The translations under genes and the position numbers were made by a program. From the IMG/VR virus record IMGVR_UViG_3300017739_000038: a stretch of DNA of 35,845 nt, one strand, 5' to 3'. Positions 1 through 35,845 of this stretch are shown here, one piece after another; position 1 is the stretch's first letter; every line of letters starts with the position of its first letter. Under the pieces are notes generated by a model. The model saw nothing but the letters and a program-made list of their open reading frames with translations. It was not told the DNA's origin and made no database searches. The DNA is from a virus.

Positions 1-834
1 AATCCACATAAGTTTCCTATCTTTATTTATTGCAACCTTTATAAGAGTTGTTGGGTCAACAGAGAATCCAAAGTCTTGTCCAAATATATAATCAGCATCA
101 TTATTAAATGGTCCTATCTTCCAATTATTAAATACAACTCCTTCTGCTTTGTCTAACCATCCACCCATTATCTGATGATTATATCTATCTGGTCTTCTGC
201 GTCTAATGTCTTCTAATTGTAAAAGAAAAGAATCTGATAGGTTATCAATGTTATCTTTAAATGTTGTGTGTATATATGTAACATTATCTTTCCAGTTATT
301 AGTTCCTGGATTTACAGCTTTAGCTGCAAAGAATCTTTGATATAACCAATGTTCTTTTGTGGCTGGGTTCAATATCATTATAACCCTATTAGGTTTATTC
401 TTAGCTCTGACTGATTGGTCTATCTTATCAAAATCCTCCTCCTTAGTCATCTCTTCAGCTTCATCAAGTACCCATGTAGTTATGCCATTTATAGACTTCA
501 GAGCTGCTGTCTGATTACCTGCTGATGTACGAATGCCTTTGAATATTATAGAGCTTCCAGTGCTTGTGTTTAAGATTTCATCCTTAGTTATTCTAAAATG
601 CTCTACAATATTATATAATTGTAACTTTTCTAGGAACTCTGGAATAATCGAATTAGAAGCACTTATCATAGTGTACCTAGTGAATAGTATCTTATGACCC
701 TGTTCAAACGTTAGAAAGGCTAAAAAGGTGGTTATAGCGAATGATTTACCACTACCTCTACCTCCAGTAATTACAAAGTACCTTGTATCGTTACCAAGTG
801 AATTATATTTCTGATTCAGAACTGGCTTCTTCAT
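1..834 (-). CDS. terL: terminase large subunit, N-terminal ATPase part. The ORF runs off the window start and continues at 35722->35351 (401 aa when joined).
   Basis: Hand translation from the ATG at 834 gives MKKPVLNQKYNSLGNDTRYFVITGGRGSGKSFAITTFLAF... (Walker A GGRGSGKS) and ...GITTWVLDEAEEM (Walker B). 834 nt is exactly 278 codons, and the frame is continuous with ORF 35351..35731 across the end overlap. Confidence 0.9.
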   Translation of the reverse strand, partial: MKKPVLNQKYNSLGNDTRYFVITGGRGSGKSFAITTFLAFLTFEQGHKILFTRYTMISASNSIIPEFLEKLQLYNIVEHFRITKDEILNTSTGSSIIFKGIRTSAGNQTAALKSINGITTWVLDEAEEMTKEEDFDKIDQSVRAKNKPNRVIMILNPATKEHWLYQRFFAAKAVNPGTNNWKDNVTYIHTTFKDNIDNLSDSFLLQLEDIRRRRPDRYNHQIMGGWLDKAEGVVFNNWKIGPFNNDADYIFGQDFGFSVDPTTLIKVAINKDRKLMWI

Positions 835-1207
835 TGTCAAGCTCTATAGTTTTATTATCATCTTGAGTGCCTGTAAAAAGGTTCTTTATATTTATGTTTA
901 CCTTTTGTTGCTTCTCCTCTGGTGCATCAATAGGTTTTCCATACTTATATTCAAACAAAAGCTTAAGATGTGGAAACGATTGCTTTGCTTGTTCTGCTAA
1001 TGATTCCCAAGCTTCTTCTTCGCTTCCAAATACTTTTGACATTGCGTTGAGTGCATAGATTCCAATTCTGTTTCGCTTGGCATTGTTAATAGCAGCAGAA
1101 GATGTGGGTCGTACAACAGGCACGTTTCTAACGCCCTGTTTTCGTCCATTGTTTCTTCGTCCATCATTTTCTTTGACATATTTATATTGTTTAGGTTTTC
1201 TTCCCAT
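803..1207 (-). CDS. putative terminase small subunit (134 aa)
   Basis: ATG at 1207. The N-terminus is basic (GRKPKQYKY..GRRNNGRKQG). The gene ends 32 nt inside terL, the position normally held by terS. LLFEYKYGKP resembles small-terminase motifs. No firm family call. Confidence 0.45.
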   Translation of the reverse strand: MGRKPKQYKYVKENDGRRNNGRKQGVRNVPVVRPTSSAAINNAKRNRIGIYALNAMSKVFGSEEEAWESLAEQAKQSFPHLKLLFEYKYGKPIDAPEEKQQKVNINIKNLFTGTQDDNKTIELDNEEASSESEI

Positions 1208-1481
1208 GTTTTATATATATATAACTGATAGCATCCCAAATTGCATCATTTATCTCTTTCTTACTATATACTTTTGTTCCCATTTTTTTAATCCCATCCT
1301 TCTCAACAATAATTTTAAATTGATGACAAAGAGGAATACAATCCCCAACAGGCTCCCTATAAATCCTATAACCATTGTCAAGGCACCACCTAGCATAGCT
1401 TTGATTGTATCTATTATTATACGGTGGTAAACTCCATTTTTTTTTATATGCATCAATCTCTTTGGCTGACCTTTTTCTCAT
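1191..1481 (-). CDS. hypothetical protein (96 aa)
   Basis: ATG start. It overlaps both neighbours in the same-strand gene chain. No motif recognised. Confidence 0.55.
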   Translation of the reverse strand: MRKRSAKEIDAYKKKWSLPPYNNRYNQSYARWCLDNGYRIYREPVGDCIPLCHQFKIIVEKDGIKKMGTKVYSKKEINDAIWDAISYIYIKHGKKT

Positions 1482-1851
1482 CTAACATCCTCTCTACTTT
1501 TCTTTTTAACTTAAAGTATTTGTTCTTCCAATATGTATCTGGATTATTTGTATATGATTTATCCAGAACATAATTCTTATAGTCATTCATTATCTCTATG
1601 TAAGTTGCATAAAAATTATCTTTATAGAACTTCATAGTCTCAAAATTCTTTAAGCCTACATTTACTGATGCGTGGTCCTTGTTTACTTCTTTGCCTATTC
1701 TTTCTAAAGTATGATGTGTTAAATCTCTGGCAATTCTGTAGTAAATAACTCTACCATAAACATACTCTCTTTTACGTAACTTACTTCTTACATCTGTATC
1801 TAAATGTCTGTTTACTTTTTCTGCTATTGATTCTAATGTTATCTTATTCAT
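1453..1851 (-). CDS. DnaA domain-IV-like helix-turn-helix DNA-binding protein (132 aa)
   Basis: RKREYVYGRVIYYRIARDLTHHTLERIGKEVNKDHASVNVGLKNFE matches the DnaA C-terminal DNA-binding domain pattern (R..aR.iamYl.r.lt..sl..IG....dHstV). Confidence 0.6.
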   Translation of the reverse strand: MNKITLESIAEKVNRHLDTDVRSKLRKREYVYGRVIYYRIARDLTHHTLERIGKEVNKDHASVNVGLKNFETMKFYKDNFYATYIEIMNDYKNYVLDKSYTNNPDTYWKNKYFKLKRKVERMLDEKKVSQRD

Positions 1852-3577: not shown

Positions 3578-3998
3578 ATTTATTAAATACTTCTTTTAGT
3601 TTATTTAGTTTACTTGCAAAACAACTTCCACAATTTGTTCCTTCTTCTTTAACATTAAATACATAATTATATATGTTTAACAAATCAGTTTGCTGTGCAG
3701 CAGTAACAGTGTTAGTGTTTCTACTAAAGAAAGCATTTAAATAATTATATTGTCCTTCTGATAAACAATTAGGTTTATTATAAGGAAACATCTTATTTAA
3801 TATCTCCTTACGCTTATCACATCCACAATCTTTACCTAGTGCATCAAAGACCGTGTCAACTACTTTTTTAATTCCAGTAGCTTTAGTTATTTTTTCTACA
3901 GTATCACCTAGCCCAATAGATTGCTTTTCATATTTAGCAACCCATTGCTTATATGCCTTAGTTCTTTTGTCTGTAGGTTTTGGTGGTATTTTAGTCAT
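3555..3998 (-). CDS. conserved-looking phage protein with CxC and CxxC pairs (147 aa)
   Basis: GLGDTVEKITKATGIKKVVD...GKDCGCDKRKEILN...GTNCGSCFASK. The start overlaps the sigma-factor gene stop by 8 nt. Confidence 0.55.
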   Translation of the reverse strand: MTKIPPKPTDKRTKAYKQWVAKYEKQSIGLGDTVEKITKATGIKKVVDTVFDALGKDCGCDKRKEILNKMFPYNKPNCLSEGQYNYLNAFFSRNTNTVTAAQQTDLLNIYNYVFNVKEEGTNCGSCFASKLNKLKEVFNKYEKPNKK

Positions 3999-4560
3999 TG
4001 TTATAATTTATTAAGTGAAAGTCTCCGTTTAAATAATCCTCAAAGTCTTCACCAAACTTTGATTGTATCATATCTTTATAATTTTTACAACTATTGAATA
4101 TAGATGTAACACTTATATTAGTTTCTTTAGCCAATTTTCTCATGCTTATATCTGTCTCATAGTAAATCTTAAATAGTTTTCTATCGTACCAATGCTCCCA
4201 GTTTTCTACTTCAGATTTTATTTTACCTATTATTTTCTCTTCAGCAGAATGTTTTGCATAATTATAATTATCTGATTCACCATCAACAATTTCATAAGTG
4301 ACCTCATAATCATCTAATCTAATTATCTTATGTTTACCTTTAGCTTTAGAATAATCTGTCCAAAGATTCTTAAGAGTTACATATACATAAAACTTATTAA
4401 CTTCAGTTTCATTATACATAATTTTCTTTACGTCTTTGATGTATTTATTAAATCTCAAATAAAGCTCATGCACAAAATCTTCTACCAGATGTCTTGGTAT
4501 TCCAATAGACAATCCCATTGCTATCCAAGTACTATGATTTTTAGATAATAACTCAAGCAT
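3991..4560 (-). CDS. sigma-70 family (ECF-like) RNA polymerase sigma factor (189 aa)
   Basis: The region-2-like segment is VEDFVHELYLRF...FYVYVTLKNLWTDYSK. The region-4-like HTH is DISMRKLAKETNISVTSIFNSCKNYKDMI. Confidence 0.65.
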   Translation of the reverse strand: MLELLSKNHSTWIAMGLSIGIPRHLVEDFVHELYLRFNKYIKDVKKIMYNETEVNKFYVYVTLKNLWTDYSKAKGKHKIIRLDDYEVTYEIVDGESDNYNYAKHSAEEKIIGKIKSEVENWEHWYDRKLFKIYYETDISMRKLAKETNISVTSIFNSCKNYKDMIQSKFGEDFEDYLNGDFHLINYNND

Positions 4561-7881: not shown

Positions 7882-8256
7882 TTAATTAGATTTATTATTT
7901 AGTTTTTCAAATGTTCTCATACCACCAAGTCCCAACATACCTACAAGAACTGTAATTAAATGTTCCATTTGTAAAGCAGGAGGTGCTGTCTCAGGACCAA
8001 CCCACCATATAAATAAATCTCTTAACACAAAATTATATGCAAGTGCAAAACCACATACCCAACCGATAAACGGTCTCCAACCTGCAACAAATATTGTTCT
8101 ATGTTGAGCTTCTATTTTATTTATTTCTCCTTGTAACTCTATAAGCTTCTGAGGGTCTATCTCTTTACCTTTAATAAGCTCTCTTATCTCTAACCCTAAA
8201 CCACTCAAATCATCTTTTTTACTAAGTCCAAGTATTCTTAATATTGTTTTTAACAT
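7882..8256 (-). CDS. putative holin (124 aa)
   Basis: A soluble coiled N-terminal part is followed by hydrophobic segments (TIFVAGWRPFIGWVCGFALAYNFVL, HLITVLVGMLGLGGM). It resembles the 3-TM holin family seen in GTA and phage lysis cassettes. It is adjacent to the endolysin. Confidence 0.5.
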   Translation of the reverse strand: MLKTILRILGLSKKDDLSGLGLEIRELIKGKEIDPQKLIELQGEINKIEAQHRTIFVAGWRPFIGWVCGFALAYNFVLRDLFIWWVGPETAPPALQMEHLITVLVGMLGLGGMRTFEKLNNKSN

Positions 8257-8287
8257 ACTGTGTTTAATGACGTACTATGTTTAAGAT

Positions 8288-8389
8288 TTACTTAAACAAT
8301 AATTTACTAATTATATGATTCCATTTTGATTTAAACCACTCGTTAAAGTTTTTAAATTGTATCGCTAACCACTCAAATATTCTTACCAT
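8288..8389 (-). CDS. small ORF (33 aa)
   Basis: Hand translation: MVRIFEWLAIQFKNFNEWFKSKWNHIISKLLFK. The ATG lies 3 nt after the preceding stop, within the lysis cassette. Confidence 0.35.
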   Translation of the reverse strand: MVRIFEWLAIQFKNFNEWFKSKWNHIISKLLFK

Positions 8390-8392
8390 ATT

Positions 8393-8536
8393 TTATTTTT
8401 TTAATAATTGTGTTATTTTAATTATTGTATAAACCAACGTAGCTATTATTAGAAGTCCTTGTAAATATTCATTTATCTTTGCGATTGTTATTATATAAAC
8501 ACTAATTCCTAATATTGTTGGTTCAAATCCGTTCAT
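8393..8536 (-). CDS. small membrane protein (47 aa, two hydrophobic helices), lysis-cassette accessory
   Basis: Hand translation: MNGFEPTILGISVYIITIAKINEYLQGLLIIATLVYTIIKITQLLKK. The ATG lies 3 nt after the fibre gene stop. Confidence 0.5.
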   Translation of the reverse strand: MNGFEPTILGISVYIITIAKINEYLQGLLIIATLVYTIIKITQLLKK

Positions 8537-31328: not shown

Positions 31329-31533
31329 ATTATTATAACCATTTATTATTATTATGTAGTAAAGATATAAAAATAAAACACTTTTGCATTTATTAGTTAT
31401 ATTATCGAAGATTAAGAATTACAAACAATTTGAAATCTTCTCTGATAAATAATAAGTTAGGTTTAGGATAATTATATTCTTTTTATTAATTTAGCTTATG
31501 TAAGTATTTTTCATATTATAAAGTTTTGTTTAA

Positions 31534-31560
31534 AGCTCTGATTGTTTTCAGGGCTTTTTT
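31534..31560 (+). terminator. plus-sense rho-independent terminator in an otherwise minus-strand genome
   Basis: AGCTCTGA-ttgttt-TCAGGGCT forms 8 bp with one G-U, followed by a T5-6 run on the plus strand. In minus-sense RNA the wobble becomes a C-A mismatch and there is no U tail. Confidence 0.45.
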
Positions 31561-31794
31561 CATATCTGCTTGAATTTCCTTAAGTGGAGAAACAATACCC
31601 CTACTGACTCTATTTACGTCAATCTCTCATATTATCTCAATACAGAAGATTTAAACCACTGAAAAGAGTTTCAGCAATGCGTAGAATTTAAAAGTATTTT
31701 TAATCCCTTAAACCTCCTGTATTTTGATAATCAGCCAAATAGAAAATAATTTAATTTTATAATTGACTGGCTAAATATAAACTAAACTAATAAT

Positions 31795-32723: not shown

Positions 32724-32772
32724 ATTGTTTAATTTGATATTGCTAAACTAGATATTTAACCAATACAAAAGT

Positions 32773-32801
32773 GTTAAAGAAAAGTTAAAGAAATGTTAAA
32801 G
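32773..32801. repeat. three GTTAAAG units at exact 11-bp phasing (CTTTAAC on the minus strand)
   Basis: gttaaag occurs at 32773, 32784 and 32795, about 50-80 nt upstream (minus sense) of the ATG at 32723. Confidence 0.85.
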
Positions 32802-32922
32802 CGTGGGAAGGCTTATGTATAAAGGGCTGACAGCGATTTGCTCACTTCTCAACTTTTTAATACTAGGATACCAAAAATAAATTAAAGTAGCTTAAAACGT
32901 CTCTAAATAGCCTTAGAAGATG

Positions 32923-32941
32923 TTAACAAAACTTTAACATT
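32923..32941 (+). repeat. 19-bp direct repeat, copy 1 (ttaacaaaactttaacatt)
   Basis: Identical to 33043..33061. It contains the TTAAC/CTTTAAC half-sites 11 bp apart, in the orientation opposite to the 32773 array. Confidence 0.9.
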
Positions 32942-33042
32942 ATTTACTTTGATTTGATAAATCTATTTATTAATCTTGCAACTTTTTCACACAAAACAGA
33001 CCATGCAAAATAATTTTATTACTTCCAAATATTTTGGGTACT

Positions 33043-33061
33043 TTAACAAAACTTTAACATT
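33043..33061 (+). repeat. 19-bp direct repeat, copy 2
   Basis: Identical to 32923..32941. Here the full CTTTAAC-AAAA-CTTTAAC lies at 33041-33058. Confidence 0.9.
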
Positions 33062-33083
33062 TGGGTATTTTGCAGGATTTCAA

Positions 33084-33318
33084 CCTACTGCGTTTAAGAA
33101 CCTACTGCGTTTAATGATTAACCCTACTGCGTTTAAGAAAACGCAACAGGTAGAAGCAAACTATTAAAACCAATCATGAAAAATGAAAAATCTCCTACCT
33201 ACTGCGTTTAAGAGTAATAAAAAAAGCAGATGGACGAATCAGGCATTACGTTTTTATATCGTCTTTCTAATGTTAGTCCTTTCATACTAACTGCCTGACC
33301 ACCTACTATGTTTAAGAA
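33084..33318 (+). repeat. cluster of five direct copies of the 17-nt motif CCTACTGCGTTTAAKRA
   Basis: The copies are 33084-33100, 33101-33117, 33123-33139, 33198-33214 (all with an exact 15-nt core) and 33302-33318 (cctactatgtttaagaa, 2 mismatches; it overlaps the stop of 33312..33554). Confidence 0.9.
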
Positions 33319-33554
33319 TTAACTTCTTTACTTATTATCTCACAAAACTCATCAAATATCTTATTAGATATGTCTTCGTACTCTTCAGCACTTAAAGTTC
33401 TGTCTGAATCCAAGTCAAACAAAGTCATCCTATCATCCTTAGAAGTGCTTAACTTATAAATTGTATAATCAACAAAGTCAAGAGAATCTAAGAAGTCAGA
33501 AGCCCAAGAATAAATAATATGCTTCTTTTTGTATTCTATGTCTTTTTTATTCAT
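33312..33554 (-). CDS. hypothetical acidic protein (80 aa from the ATG)
   Basis: MNKKDIEYKKKHIIYSWASDFLDSLDF... The track start at 33590 is a TTG. The ATG at 33554 lies 4 nt after the stop of the 39-aa ORF. Confidence 0.5.
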   Translation of the reverse strand: MNKKDIEYKKKHIIYSWASDFLDSLDFVDYTIYKLSTSKDDRMTLFDLDSDRTLSAEEYEDISNKIFDEFCEIISKEVNS

Positions 33555-33558
33555 ATTA

Positions 33559-33678
33559 TTATGCTTTATTATATTTATGCCATTTATCAATTATAGGTTC
33601 GTCTGTGCTATAATCAATATAAAAAACATAATCATCTATTTCAACGTACATTACGTGTTTTCTAATATCTAATTTCAT
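33559..33678 (-). CDS. small hypothetical protein (39 aa)
   Basis: Hand translation: MKLDIRKHVMYVEIDDYVFYIDYSTDEPIIDKWHKYNKA. TAATG junction with the 446-aa gene. Confidence 0.4.
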   Translation of the reverse strand: MKLDIRKHVMYVEIDDYVFYIDYSTDEPIIDKWHKYNKA

Positions 33679-35018
33679 TACCAAGCTGTTAAGGTTAACT
33701 CTGAAATATCATAGGAATCCAGAACTTCTGTTGGAAACTTCCATTTCCAGTTATCAACTTTATAGCTTTGATTTAGATTATCATAAGCAATCTTATCAAA
33801 ATTAACCTCCTCATGAATACTAAAATCTAATATACCAAACTCTAAAACATTTTCTTGATATCCCTGTAAAAAGTCTAAATACAATCTAGGGTCAACTAAC
33901 TTATCAATGTACATTGGAACATATATTGCTTTAGCGTCTTTGATTTTACCAGTCATTAACTTATCATCAGATATATAAAACATTTTTTTTATCCAGATTC
34001 TAAGCTTTACCTTACTTTCTAATCTTTTCAATACATCAATTTGATTTACTCCATGAATAGTATCTGTATTGTTAGGATAAAACTTTCTACACTTATTCAT
34101 CTTAGAAGTATCATATCCCCACTCAATCATCTTTTCAGTAGTATCTGTATTTAAAGGTTTGATTATAGTAGAATCTACATTGTTATATAACCATTGCCTA
34201 TAATTAATCCTCCTTTGTCTCTTCAGTTCATTAAGCTCATCTCTAAGCTCTGAAGTCTCTGGAAAATATGTTACATTAACTTTGTCATGAAACTCATTTG
34301 TCATAACCATAAAATTAGAAGTGTTGAGTAAAAGTCTTTGATATAGAGCAAAATCATTTGCAATATTTATATAGTCAATTTTGTTATACTCATCATTATA
34401 ATGCGTATGAAATCTTCTACCAAGCTCTAATTTATAAACATAGTATTTTCCTTTATTACTATCTTCAGAATCATGTGTAAAATAAACTTGATATTTAATA
34501 AAAGCTCCCAAATCTTCTGAAAGCTCTCTAATATCTCTGTATATGTTTTTAGCAAAAGTTTCAGACATACCACAGATATTTTTATCAAGATACCTAACTC
34601 TTATTTTACTCTCATAAGTATCTTTATCAAAAAGATAAAAATATAAGTGAAATGAATCTTGAGAAAAGCCATTAGTATAAAAATCCTCAAAGATTTCATA
34701 GGTTATTTCACTACCAGATTTTGCTTCAATTATTGGTAGTAACTCTTCTCTTTCAGAATCTGAAAAATTAACAACTACATTTCTAATAGAATCATATTCT
34801 AAAATATCTGGACACCTCCAGAACTTTTTGAACCTAGTATCCCATACTAAAACATTATCCTCTAAAGTGTTTAACTCACTTAAATAAGCTTTATAAAGTT
34901 TTTTAATATCCTTTTTTTGCCTATTTAATTCTAGCTTATTAATCTTATTAATGCTAGTTTCTGCGTTAGATATTTGTTTATCTAACTCTTTGTATTTGTG
35001 TTCGTAATTATTATTCAT
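33678..35018 (-). CDS. large ORFan protein (446 aa from the ATG)
   Basis: A long open frame in a stop-rich AT genome. No motif recognised. The track start at 35039 is a TTG lying inside a TAGGTTTG box. The first ATG at 35018 gives MNNNYEHKYKELDK... Confidence 0.7.
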   Translation of the reverse strand: MNNNYEHKYKELDKQISNAETSINKINKLELNRQKKDIKKLYKAYLSELNTLEDNVLVWDTRFKKFWRCPDILEYDSIRNVVVNFSDSEREELLPIIEAKSGSEITYEIFEDFYTNGFSQDSFHLYFYLFDKDTYESKIRVRYLDKNICGMSETFAKNIYRDIRELSEDLGAFIKYQVYFTHDSEDSNKGKYYVYKLELGRRFHTHYNDEYNKIDYINIANDFALYQRLLLNTSNFMVMTNEFHDKVNVTYFPETSELRDELNELKRQRRINYRQWLYNNVDSTIIKPLNTDTTEKMIEWGYDTSKMNKCRKFYPNNTDTIHGVNQIDVLKRLESKVKLRIWIKKMFYISDDKLMTGKIKDAKAIYVPMYIDKLVDPRLYLDFLQGYQENVLEFGILDFSIHEEVNFDKIAYDNLNQSYKVDNWKWKFPTEVLDSYDISELTLTAW

Positions 35019-35036
35019 ATTATAAAAATTATGGTG

Positions 35037-35044
35037 CAAACCTA
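35037..35044 (-). promoter_or_regulatory. candidate Bacteroidota-type -7 promoter box (TAGGTTTG)
   Basis: Exact TAnnTTTG on the minus strand, 19 nt upstream of the ATG at 35018, with no clear TTTG -33 partner. The 8-mer is expected tens of times by chance in this genome. Confidence 0.25.
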
Positions 35045-35077
35045 AGTAAAAAGTTTATAACATTAATAATAAATTAT

Positions 35078-35099
35078 GTTAAAATTTTGTTAAAATTTC
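35078..35099. repeat. tandem 11-bp repeat GTTAAAATTT(T/C) x2
   Basis: gttaaaatttt is at 35078-35088 and gttaaaatttc at 35089-35099. It has the same TTTAAC half-site, 11-bp phase and orientation as the 32773 array, and lies upstream of the 446-aa gene. Confidence 0.85.
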
Positions 35100-35137: not shown

Positions 35138-35350
35138 CCTACTGCGTTTAAGAGTCAGAACTAAACAAACCTTACTGCGTTTAATGACTAAGGAAGCTTG
35201 GATGGAAATGTACTTAATTATCTGTTTAGCTTTTGCTTTTGTTACACTAACATTTTTATTTGTGTATGCAATCACATTTCTTTATGTTGAAGTAGCCCAC
35301 CCTATACCTATTGCGTTTAATGATTATATAATACCTACTGCGTTTAATGA
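35138..35350 (+). repeat. cluster of four direct copies of the 17-nt motif in a 2+2 arrangement
   Basis: The copies are 35138-35154 (exact), 35171-35187 (cttactgcgtttaatga), 35307-35323 (cctattgcgtttaatga) and 35334-35350 (exact). The last copy abuts the terL TAG stop at 35351-35353. Confidence 0.9.
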
Positions 35351-35845
35351 CTACCTTATTACATAAACGCCTTTATTTGCGTTGGCGAGGAAATACTGTG
35401 CTGAGTATCGAAGTGCGTCTAACTGATGGTTCCATTTATCAACAGGTTTTTCGTTCCTCTCATGCCAAACATAATTATTTAGCTCTTTTATCAGCTCTAC
35501 ACTATCAGCATCAATTATTAAATCATAGTCCTGAACCAGAGCAATCCCTGTCAGAATAGACCCACTGCGTTTAATGGTCGGCTTTAGGTTACAGTATTCT
35601 TGTAGCTCTGAGATAAGTCTAGGTTCTGCATTGTCACATACAATTATACTATCTTCTGCATAACGCCTATTGAGTTCTCCTATCTCTTTAGTAGATAAAC
35701 CTGGTTTAGCATACATAGTTTTAATCCACATAAGTTTCCTATCTTTATTTATTGCAACCTTTATAAGAGTTGTTGGGTCAACAGAGAATCCAAAGTCTTG
35801 TCCAAATATATAATCAGCATCATTATTAAATGGTCCTATCTTCCA
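35351..35845 (-). CDS. terL: terminase large subunit, C-terminal nuclease part. 35351..35722 is unique; 35723..35845 duplicates bases 1..123.
   Basis: ...IVCDNAEPRLISELQEYCNLKPTIKRSGSILTGIALVQDYDLIIDADSVELIKELNNYVWHE...DALRYS. It is in frame with 1..834 across the overlap. Confidence 0.9.
   Translation of the reverse strand, partial: WKIGPFNNDADYIFGQDFGFSVDPTTLIKVAINKDRKLMWIKTMYAKPGLSTKEIGELNRRYAEDSIIVCDNAEPRLISELQEYCNLKPTIKRSGSILTGIALVQDYDLIIDADSVELIKELNNYVWHERNEKPVDKWNHQLDALRYSAQYFLANANKGVYVIR
35723..35845. repeat. 123-bp end overlap identical to bases 1..123 (circular or permuted assembly closure)
   Basis: Direct comparison: aatccacataagtttcctatc...tggtcctatcttcca is present at both ends. 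Confidence 0.95.

Follow-up and report, generated by a model that had tools for sequence, protein, structure and literature searches.

Direct-repeat arrays beside the large terminase gene of a marine Flavobacteriia phage family: a candidate packaging site also found in satellite-like elements

What role is played by a set of short direct repeats that touches the stop codon of a phage terminase gene? The question is raised by the window, i.e. the whole stretch of 35,845 nucleotides analysed here (IMG/VR virus record IMGVR_UViG_3300017739_000038), in which such repeats follow terL. The original prediction, made from these letters, favoured a pac or TerS-binding site of P1-like design, with two pairs of repeats flanking a core in which the DNA would be cut, and named iterons, operators and 3'-UTR RNA elements as alternatives.

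The repeat arrays of the window

The window represents an uncultured phage whose genome was assembled as a circle of about 35.7 kb: an exact direct repeat of 123 bp occupies positions 1-123 and 35723-35845, inside terL, which reads across the junction. This terminal repeat is an overlap of the circular contig assembly and not a biological terminal repeat; the circularity foreseen by the original prediction stands for the assembly, but an overlap is no proof of a permuted virion genome. The contig ends were also considered as physical termini and discarded, being scattered and accounted for by assembly breaks at repeats. The only convincing plus-strand gene is the small antisense ORF of Table 1; the genes are otherwise on the minus strand and encode, in order of transcription, ERF, AAA_25, RusA, a sub-threshold ECF-sigma-like protein, an exonuclease, a DnaA-domain-IV-like HTH protein, a terS-like protein of 134 aa and a PBSX-family terL. 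After terL come array A, the 446/453-aa gene, the 92-aa gene, array B and a conserved noncoding block, followed by small genes, structural genes, holin and endolysin. The terL product matches TIGR01547 (E = 6e-41), and its family is associated with headful packaging. No RNA polymerase, DNA polymerase, integrase or tRNA was found in the genome of the window, and no family or defence model matched the 453-aa protein. The nearest isolates are the Nonlabens phages P12024S/L, with 51% terL identity in a protein search; isolated phages gave no match in a DNA-level search and only distant ones at the protein level, and P12024S has no comparable arrays.

Two minor features of the gene complement may be recorded. 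A conserved protein of 189 aa (3991-4560, minus strand) aligns over nearly its full length with an ECF sigma-70 superfamily model, at an E value of 1.7e-5 that falls under the curated cutoff, and may be a phage sigma factor. Two tiny minus-strand ORFs between the tail-fibre gene and the holin gene, at 8389-8532 and 8293-8391, encode respectively a transmembrane peptide of 47 aa and a peptide of 33 aa, which may be extra lysis components.

On the gene strand the motif reads TYM-TTAAACGCAGTAGG-KT, a strand-specific unit of about 14-19 nt with TTAAACGCAGTAGG as its core. It was found at all five positions given by the original prediction, that is, at the four copies of array A, which are located exactly as claimed (on the plus strand) and share a single orientation, and at the near-copy in the 3' region of terL. 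The geometry was likewise confirmed: copies 2 and 3, and thus the two pairs, are separated by 119 bp, and the array begins 1 nt past the terL stop codon (CTA at 35351-35353 on the plus strand), which its last copy touches. The idea of one site did not survive, as there is a second array about 2 kb away (array B) and weak copies occur elsewhere, at further gene junctions, in the direction of transcription. There are copies that run into a stop codon or adjoin a start codon; for instance, the array B copy at 33302 overlaps the stop codon of the 92-aa gene, and the ATG of the holin gene lies inside the second copy of the degenerate pair that precedes it. Array B also holds a degenerate inverted copy at about 33137-33153.

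The strong copies in the window number 10 (arrays A and B plus the copy in terL). The expected enrichment over shuffled controls was found, with 16 matches at up to 3 mismatches versus 0.24 expected from shuffles, and 9 matches to the 13-nt core versus 0.08 expected; these counts rule out chance. A PWM derived from 528 non-redundant motif copies gave 18 matches on the gene strand and 1 on the other, the expectation being 0.4 for either strand.

The copy inside terL bears on the level at which the motif is conserved. The peptide PTIKR(S/K)GSIL is kept in all terL proteins; class-A phages encode it with ATT AAA CGC AGT GGG, which is the motif copy, and class-B phages and locus L056 with ATA AAA AGA/AGG AAA GGT, where there is no motif. 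Since CGC is a rare codon (3 of the 331 Arg codons, or 0.9%, in the genome of the window) and this spelling occurs in class-A phages only, the motif is kept at the DNA level even inside terL. The earlier statement that conservation is at the level of DNA and not of protein was correct, and is strengthened by this codon evidence. As a side observation, a deep clade carries a motif copy in a SET-domain-like gene just upstream of terS (L064:7971, L108:2572, L104:8928), and this copy, as does the one in terL, encodes ...TIKRS...

The arrays could also act in RNA, as protein-binding or processing sites in a 3'-UTR or 5'-UTR, or as promoters of a sigma-like factor. The co-orientation of the copies with transcription (18 to 1), their contacts with stop and start codons and the presence of the ECF-sigma-like protein would agree with this. 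However, co-orientation is uninformative where every gene is on one strand, tandem arrays of up to 12 copies are unexpected for promoters, and in two of the satellite-like elements described below (L178 and L226) the genes of the element and the pair have opposite directions. A bipartite ECF-type promoter was excluded because nothing lies at a fixed distance downstream of the last copies. The scans for tRNAs and Rfam families found nothing, and array A shows no RNA structure (z = +1.3), so that the 3'-UTR element offered as an alternative by the original prediction finds no backing; the fold of array B (z = −2.1) is owed solely to the degenerate inverted copy. We therefore regard an action at the RNA or promoter level as extremely improbable.

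The core between the two pairs of array A does not behave as a cleavage region. Across loci this stretch measures 119-136 bp and encodes a small hydrophobic antisense peptide, whose DNA has diverged while its transmembrane character is kept (L001-L056); L005, L024 and L026-28 lack the ORF and have plain tandem copies. On these grounds the core is a facultative membrane-peptide cassette sitting in the array, not a conserved cleavage region, and the P1-like arrangement of 2+2 repeats around a cut core has to be given up: the ORF is dispensable, and many relatives have tandem copies instead. We also note that the core peptide of the relatives exists in two or three unrelated versions, e.g. MTKYPNRMYFESIGLGILFTLSSFFFVYMFTWVVIAIRF. 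Some likeness to the pac site of P1, a headful phage, does exist, in that short direct repeats form two clusters adjoining the terminase genes. The P1 site, however, consists of 6-bp Dam sites (TGATCA/G), 4+3 around a fixed cut region inside pacA, whereas the unit here is 14-19 nt without GATC. Nor is the 2+2 layout conserved, its core being a facultative antisense gene, and the arrays are found past terL and again 2 kb away.

Table 1. Location of the arrays, of neighbouring and candidate reader genes in the window, and layout of two elements carrying the motif pair
Feature	Position	Strand	Remarks
terL, 3' part	35351..35845, continuing over the circular junction to 834..1	-	PBSX-family large terminase
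Motif copy within terL	35561..35577	-	about 220 nt ahead of the stop codon
Array A	35138-35154, 35171-35187, 35307-35323, 35334-35350	-	4 copies; gene strand TCATTAAACGCAGTAGG and similar
Small antisense ORF	35184..35366	+	MTKEAWMEMYLIICLAFAFVTLTFLFVYAITFLYVEV...; fills the 119-bp core; hydrophobic, about 54-60 aa
Promoter-like composite below array A	35037..35094	-	doubled TTTAACA at 35094-35077, 11-nt period; -7 box TAGGTTTG at 35044-35037
446/453-aa protein gene	35018/35039..33678	-	between the arrays; no family match
92-aa protein gene	33590..33312	-	between the arrays; no family match
Array B	33084..33318	-	5 copies; plus-strand starts 33084, 33101, 33123, 33198, 33302
Conserved noncoding block past array B	32724..33083	-	
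Degenerate motif pair	8251..8287	-	TTAAACATAGTACG + TTAAACACAGTATG; between a tiny ORF and the holin gene
DnaA-domain-IV-like HTH protein	1453..1851	-	considered as reader, judged unlikely
134-aa terS-like protein	803..1207	-	candidate reader; basic N-terminal arm, three helices, acidic tail
Element L178	1.13-Mb Flavobacteriaceae contig		host genes, TTCTTAAACGCAGTGGGTTCTTAAACGCAGTAGGTT, 139-aa HTH, tyrosine integrase, truncated tRNA fragment, host genes
Element L176	Bacteroidetes single-cell genome		tRNA-Val, motif x2, three small genes, recombinase-like protein

Arrays and the accessory region in related phages

Arrays of a single orientation downstream of terL occur in more than 170 related viral contigs and in at least 75 metagenome contigs. 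The search of IMG/VR with terL gave 58 loci, in about 25 of which an array immediately follows the terL stop codon (7 nt), frequently with the same 2+2 layout; across relatives the start of array A falls 0-7 nt past the stop, and a second array lies 1.2-3 kb beyond the first in the terL-selected relatives. A scan of IMG/VR with the motif alone added 116 stretches, 115 loci of which were analysed. Wherever terL is present in these (8 of the 115 are short and without it), the arrays are downstream of a terL homologue of 56-90% identity, and none is inverted. The metagenome scan returned at least 120 further contigs, at least 75 of them with terL. The motif was predicted to recur in intergenic regions of related phages, and it is indeed present in hundreds of contigs of uncultured marine Flavobacteriia phages. 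The family is abundant in marine viromes and has no cultured member; a literature search found nothing on these repeats.

The number of copies per array varies from 2 to 12, and their spacing from 17 to 27 nt (modes at 17, 19, 21, 23, 25 and 27, the modal value being 21), with no helical phasing. In all loci the spacing is almost always odd, which may be an effect of shared ancestry. Relatives with a terL identity of 82-84% have TTCAACATAATAGGG arrays of up to 9-10 copies in the same slot, more distant relatives have AATTCAATAGGG arrays there, and all variant motifs fit the general form TTMAAY-NN-AR-TAGG. The 14-nt core is invariant down to a terL identity of 56%, and the edges of its information content are sharp. 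At the holin junction (the equivalent of 8251..8287) a deep clade carries stronger motif pairs. In class-C relatives the array is 1.2-1.6 kb from terL; separately, these phages contain extra arrays of the unrelated short motifs TATACTAAGTATAATA, ACTATGTATCATGATA and CAATTCAAAAGGGGGTA (L043:9086-9205, L037:10653-10790, L037:8878-8980), so that short direct-repeat arrays are a general feature of the accessory region.

The stretch from terL to a conserved structural gene for a 239-aa protein is hypervariable among relatives, and throughout the family arrays are found on its terL-proximal border as well as within it. Seven relatives align with the window across terS-terL and the first copies of the array up to 35302-35333; beyond this point, homology is limited to matches of array to array and to conserved blocks further downstream. 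Even close relatives have different genes between and beside the arrays, and one cassette, the W32380 homologue, stands before array B in some phages and after it in others. The arrays are thus the mosaic breakpoints, i.e. the recombination joints, of the hypervariable accessory region. Being the only sequence common to otherwise unrelated cargo, they would be used as linkers; the phage encodes ERF, an exonuclease and RusA, and this system would be the one that joins cassettes at the arrays and makes the accessory region mosaic. A pair of otherwise identical loci, L016:5307-5460 and L017:7203-7380, differs by exactly one 19-nt unit, so that arrays grow and shrink by slippage or unequal recombination.

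Whatever their primary function, the arrays are accessory-region joints similar to the PeSLs of T4-type phages, mobile regulatory cassettes made of an early promoter and a stem-loop (PMC2839356, PMC4122927). Both systems place a short conserved motif on either side of variable ORFs within a hyperplastic region, and both have their recombination breakpoints at that motif and promoter elements in association with it (PMC2839356, PMC4122927). The motif described here differs in being neither promoter nor hairpin, a separate promoter-like element following about half of the arrays, and tandem arrays, a codon-constrained terL copy and sharing with satellites are features of this system. One may ask whether the arrays are nothing but linkers, with no dedicated binding protein, that persist through cassette exchange among co-infecting relatives, as has been proposed for PeSLs. 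The coincidence of homology breakpoints with the arrays, the movement of the W32380-homologue cassette, the recombination genes and the single-unit difference between L016 and L017 all fit such a view. We consider it very unlikely all the same, because an invariant core with sharp edges points to sequence-specific recognition, the terL copy is constrained in its codons, and unrelated satellites have captured just a pair of copies, which indicates a function in trans.

Promoters in the window look of Bacteroidetes type (TAnnTTTG). The -7 box TAGGTTTG lies 26 nt ahead of the ATG of the 446/453-aa gene, and the conserved noncoding block past array B contains two inverted TTAACAAAACTTTAACAT elements (plus strand, 33042-33060 and 32922-32941), a -7 box TATTTTTG (32879) and a triple CTTTAAC repeat (32800-32772). 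Among 175 non-redundant arrays of the family, 53% have their start between −12 and +15 nt from the upstream stop codon, about 92 are followed by a doubled TTAACA(T) and 102 by a -7 box within 220 nt, and the next ORF begins at a median of 176 nt downstream. Three further observations belong here. TTTAACA, repeated at an 11-nt period ahead of -7 boxes of Bacteroidetes type, is throughout the family the k-mer with the highest enrichment past the arrays, and is probably the site of a different regulator. In several relatives (e.g. L004, L008) a perfect palindrome, ATTTAGAAT-N-ATTCTAAAT, absent from the window, stands between array B and the TTAACA element and resembles the operator of a dimeric repressor. 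The noncoding gap of 466 nt at 31329-31794, notable at 31532-31557 on the plus strand and at 31599-31609, is upstream of the 239-aa structural gene and kept in relatives; it contains a half-motif CCCTACTGAC and a terminator-like hairpin of the plus strand, and may mean antisense transcription or a small RNA.

These promoter-like elements raise the possibility of an operator or insulator, i.e. that a phage DNA-binding protein coats the arrays, blocks read-through from the replication-terS-terL operon, and silences or times the accessory promoters; satellites would then use the site to sense infection by the helper phage. The largest noncoding regulatory regions of the genome begin with the arrays, which have the gene-end and promoter statistics given above; no intrinsic terminator was found 3' of terL, some relatives have the palindromic operator past array B, small HTH proteins are encoded by the phage besides the sigma-like protein, weak copies at other gene junctions follow the direction of transcription, and in element L226 the motif lies in an intergenic region upstream of an operon. 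On the other hand, the arrays hug the upstream gene at 100-250 nt from the promoters, operators do not need a strict single orientation, regulation hardly accounts for the codon-constrained terL copy, the pair in L178 and L190 is at the end of the element with no gene to regulate, and no candidate regulator tracks the motif class. On balance, we find a regulatory role unlikely.

Motif pairs in satellite-like elements

The motif links the phages to small integrative elements in the genomes of Flavobacteriaceae and other Bacteroidota, of which at least 4 (L176, L178, L190 and L226) are satellite-like and carry a pair of copies with phage-type flanks. None of 185,579 species genomes contains the exact two-copy pattern; a degenerate two-copy pattern gave 4 matches in the genome scan versus about 0.1 expected by our own estimate. 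L226, L190 and L178 share a module of about 200 nt, formed by the motif pair and GTCCATTCGTGTAAAGTGTAA. The element in L178 measures about 2.6 kb and has kept the pair without any replication genes, that in L190 stops about 80 nt past the pair, and L226 has more genes past the module, one of them TerS-like by position. By BLAST, no proteins are common to the phage and these elements, and the 453-aa phage protein is unrelated to the recombinase of L176; as the pair is carried by elements without any protein in common with the phage, its recognition must take place in trans. IMG/VR yielded no close relatives of the satellite recombinases. Arm-type integrase sites were considered and rejected, as the recombinases of the pair-bearing elements are unrelated and none is encoded by the phages.

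Homologues of the L178 integrase occur in elements that encode int, HTH_17, an AAA_25/DnaB_C helicase, DUF6371, small ORFs and a DUF5681 TerS-like gene, and these L185-type elements have no motif. Their DUF6371 protein (L179-L188) shows Zn-finger and Toprim-like motifs. It can be observed that L179-L188 (e.g. L185:5001-10461) are PICI/VEIME-like integrative satellites of marine Flavobacteriia, about 5.5 kb long and flanked by host genes. In L190 and L178 the motif module is found at the end of the element where relatives carry their own TerS gene.

Two direct-repeat arrays that flank a block of genes also call to mind iterons, by which an initiator would bind the repeats beside AT-rich DNA and recruit the RepA-like AAA_25 helicase, with the second array acting in handcuffing as in P1 or F. 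The likeness to P1 incC/incA, F and RSF1010 comprises the direct repeats of 17-22 nt (17-21 nt here, at the modal spacing of 21), arrays on both sides of genes as incC/incA around repA in P1, neighbouring DNA of 16-24% GC, and the RepA-like AAA_25 and DnaA-IV-like HTH proteins of the phage. Moreover, the first 9 nt of the motif agree with a DnaA box at 6 of 9 positions, as read from sequence, and the primase-like DUF6371 gene of L226 and L190 is closely followed by the module, which has the position of a SaPI-type origin. Unlike in P1 and F, however, the cargo between the arrays is variable and no Rep gene, a candidate that was discarded for this reason, and there is no adjacent cognate initiator. 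Copy number ranges widely and the spacing lacks phasing, the arrays occupy the most variable part of the genome, host DnaA boxes were neither found nor enriched, and the DnaA-IV-like helix is hypervariable though the motif is invariant. L185-type satellites have the same replication genes without the motif, and conversely the L178 pair persists without replication genes. An origin function appears quite improbable.

The capture of helper packaging sites is known from other satellites. VEIMEs are small marine satellites that are packaged as concatemers in full-size helper capsids, and the identity of the helper phages, most of which are unidentified for marine satellites, was named as an open problem in the VEIME study (PMC9618062). 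VEIMEs (PMC9618062), P4 and cos-type SaPIs/PICIs resemble the elements described here in being small and integrative and in carrying int, xis-like, primase/helicase and TerS-like genes, and some have a helper cis-site in place of, or besides, their own TerS. The difference is that packaging and the link to a phage are here deduced from the shared motif only, and that L226 bears both the motif and a TerS-like gene. It is conceivable, though we hold it with some doubt, that the motif is the packaging-initiation signal of widespread virulent phages of marine Flavobacteriia, captured for encapsidation by VEIME-like satellites of the same hosts. If true, helper phages would for the first time be assigned to marine satellites from sequence, and the pac architecture would be an unusual one, in which arrays of variable copy number past terL double as recombination joints of the accessory region. 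The shared cis-site in any case makes the pairing of helper and satellite testable, and connects the phage family with hosts among the Bacteroidota.

Terminase recognition and candidate reader proteins

These observations can be considered in the light of known packaging systems. We tentatively favour a cis-acting array that is read in trans by a phage protein, most likely as a terminase recognition (pac) site, and that also serves as a recombination linker. Of the original prediction, what stands is a terminase-linked element of one orientation, conserved in DNA, with pac or TerS binding still the single most likely role, if short of an even expectation; what falls is the P1-like design with a single site. 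A packaging role fits best with the linkage to terL, the constrained copy inside it, the headful-type terminase and the capture by satellites. As is general for headful pac sites, the site adjoins the terminase genes and is inherited together with them, as seen in array A, in the terL copy and in the homology that runs through the first copies. According to the mechanism that we propose, the small-terminase-like protein, or a TerS-TerL complex, would assemble cooperatively on the arrays of concatemeric DNA and start headful packaging in one direction, and satellites bearing the motif pair would become packageable by this phage family.

Multiple binding sites for the small terminase, serving as a nucleation platform, are known from the pacL/pacR boxes of SPP1, R1-R3 of lambda cosB and the gp16 pac site of T4, and the pac/pseudo-pac synapsis model of T4 gp16 involves two related sites a few kb apart. 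These sites, however, are in or upstream of terS, and the arrays of the present family, known from sequence, are far more variable in copy number. Known pac sites in general are usually in or upstream of terS and not past terL, which counts against a pac site here. So do the distance of the class-C array from terL, the presence of two arrays 2 kb apart, the use of an identical motif by at least 10 terS clusters, the coexistence in L226 of the motif with the element's own TerS-like gene, and the promoter-like elements that regularly follow the arrays and would equally fit a regulatory role. In particular, packaging poorly explains the second array, the weak copies at gene junctions and the regularity of the promoter-like elements downstream.

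As to the protein that reads the motif, for which the arrays provide a DNA probe as well as a mark of genome mosaicism, the DnaA-domain-IV-like HTH protein had been proposed as a binder together with the terS-like protein. Its recognition helix varies (HASV, HTNV, HSSV, HATV, HAVT, HACV...) among phages with the same motif, and just 2 columns of the family are conserved at 95% or more; an early correlation of HASV/HATV with motif class dissolved with more data, and this candidate was dropped. A Cys-rich protein of 96 aa was also rejected, since it is missing in L056 and in class B.

The 134-aa protein shows a weak similarity to DUF5681, its AlphaFold model is poor, and it has no relative in the PDB; gene position and the DUF5681 match point weakly to a putative terS. 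The class-A motif is shared by terS clusters down to about 38% identity. Class B has a terS cluster of its own and yet an HTH cluster in common with class A; one terS column alone separates class A from class B, and in L056 class-A arrays are paired with a class-B-like terS.
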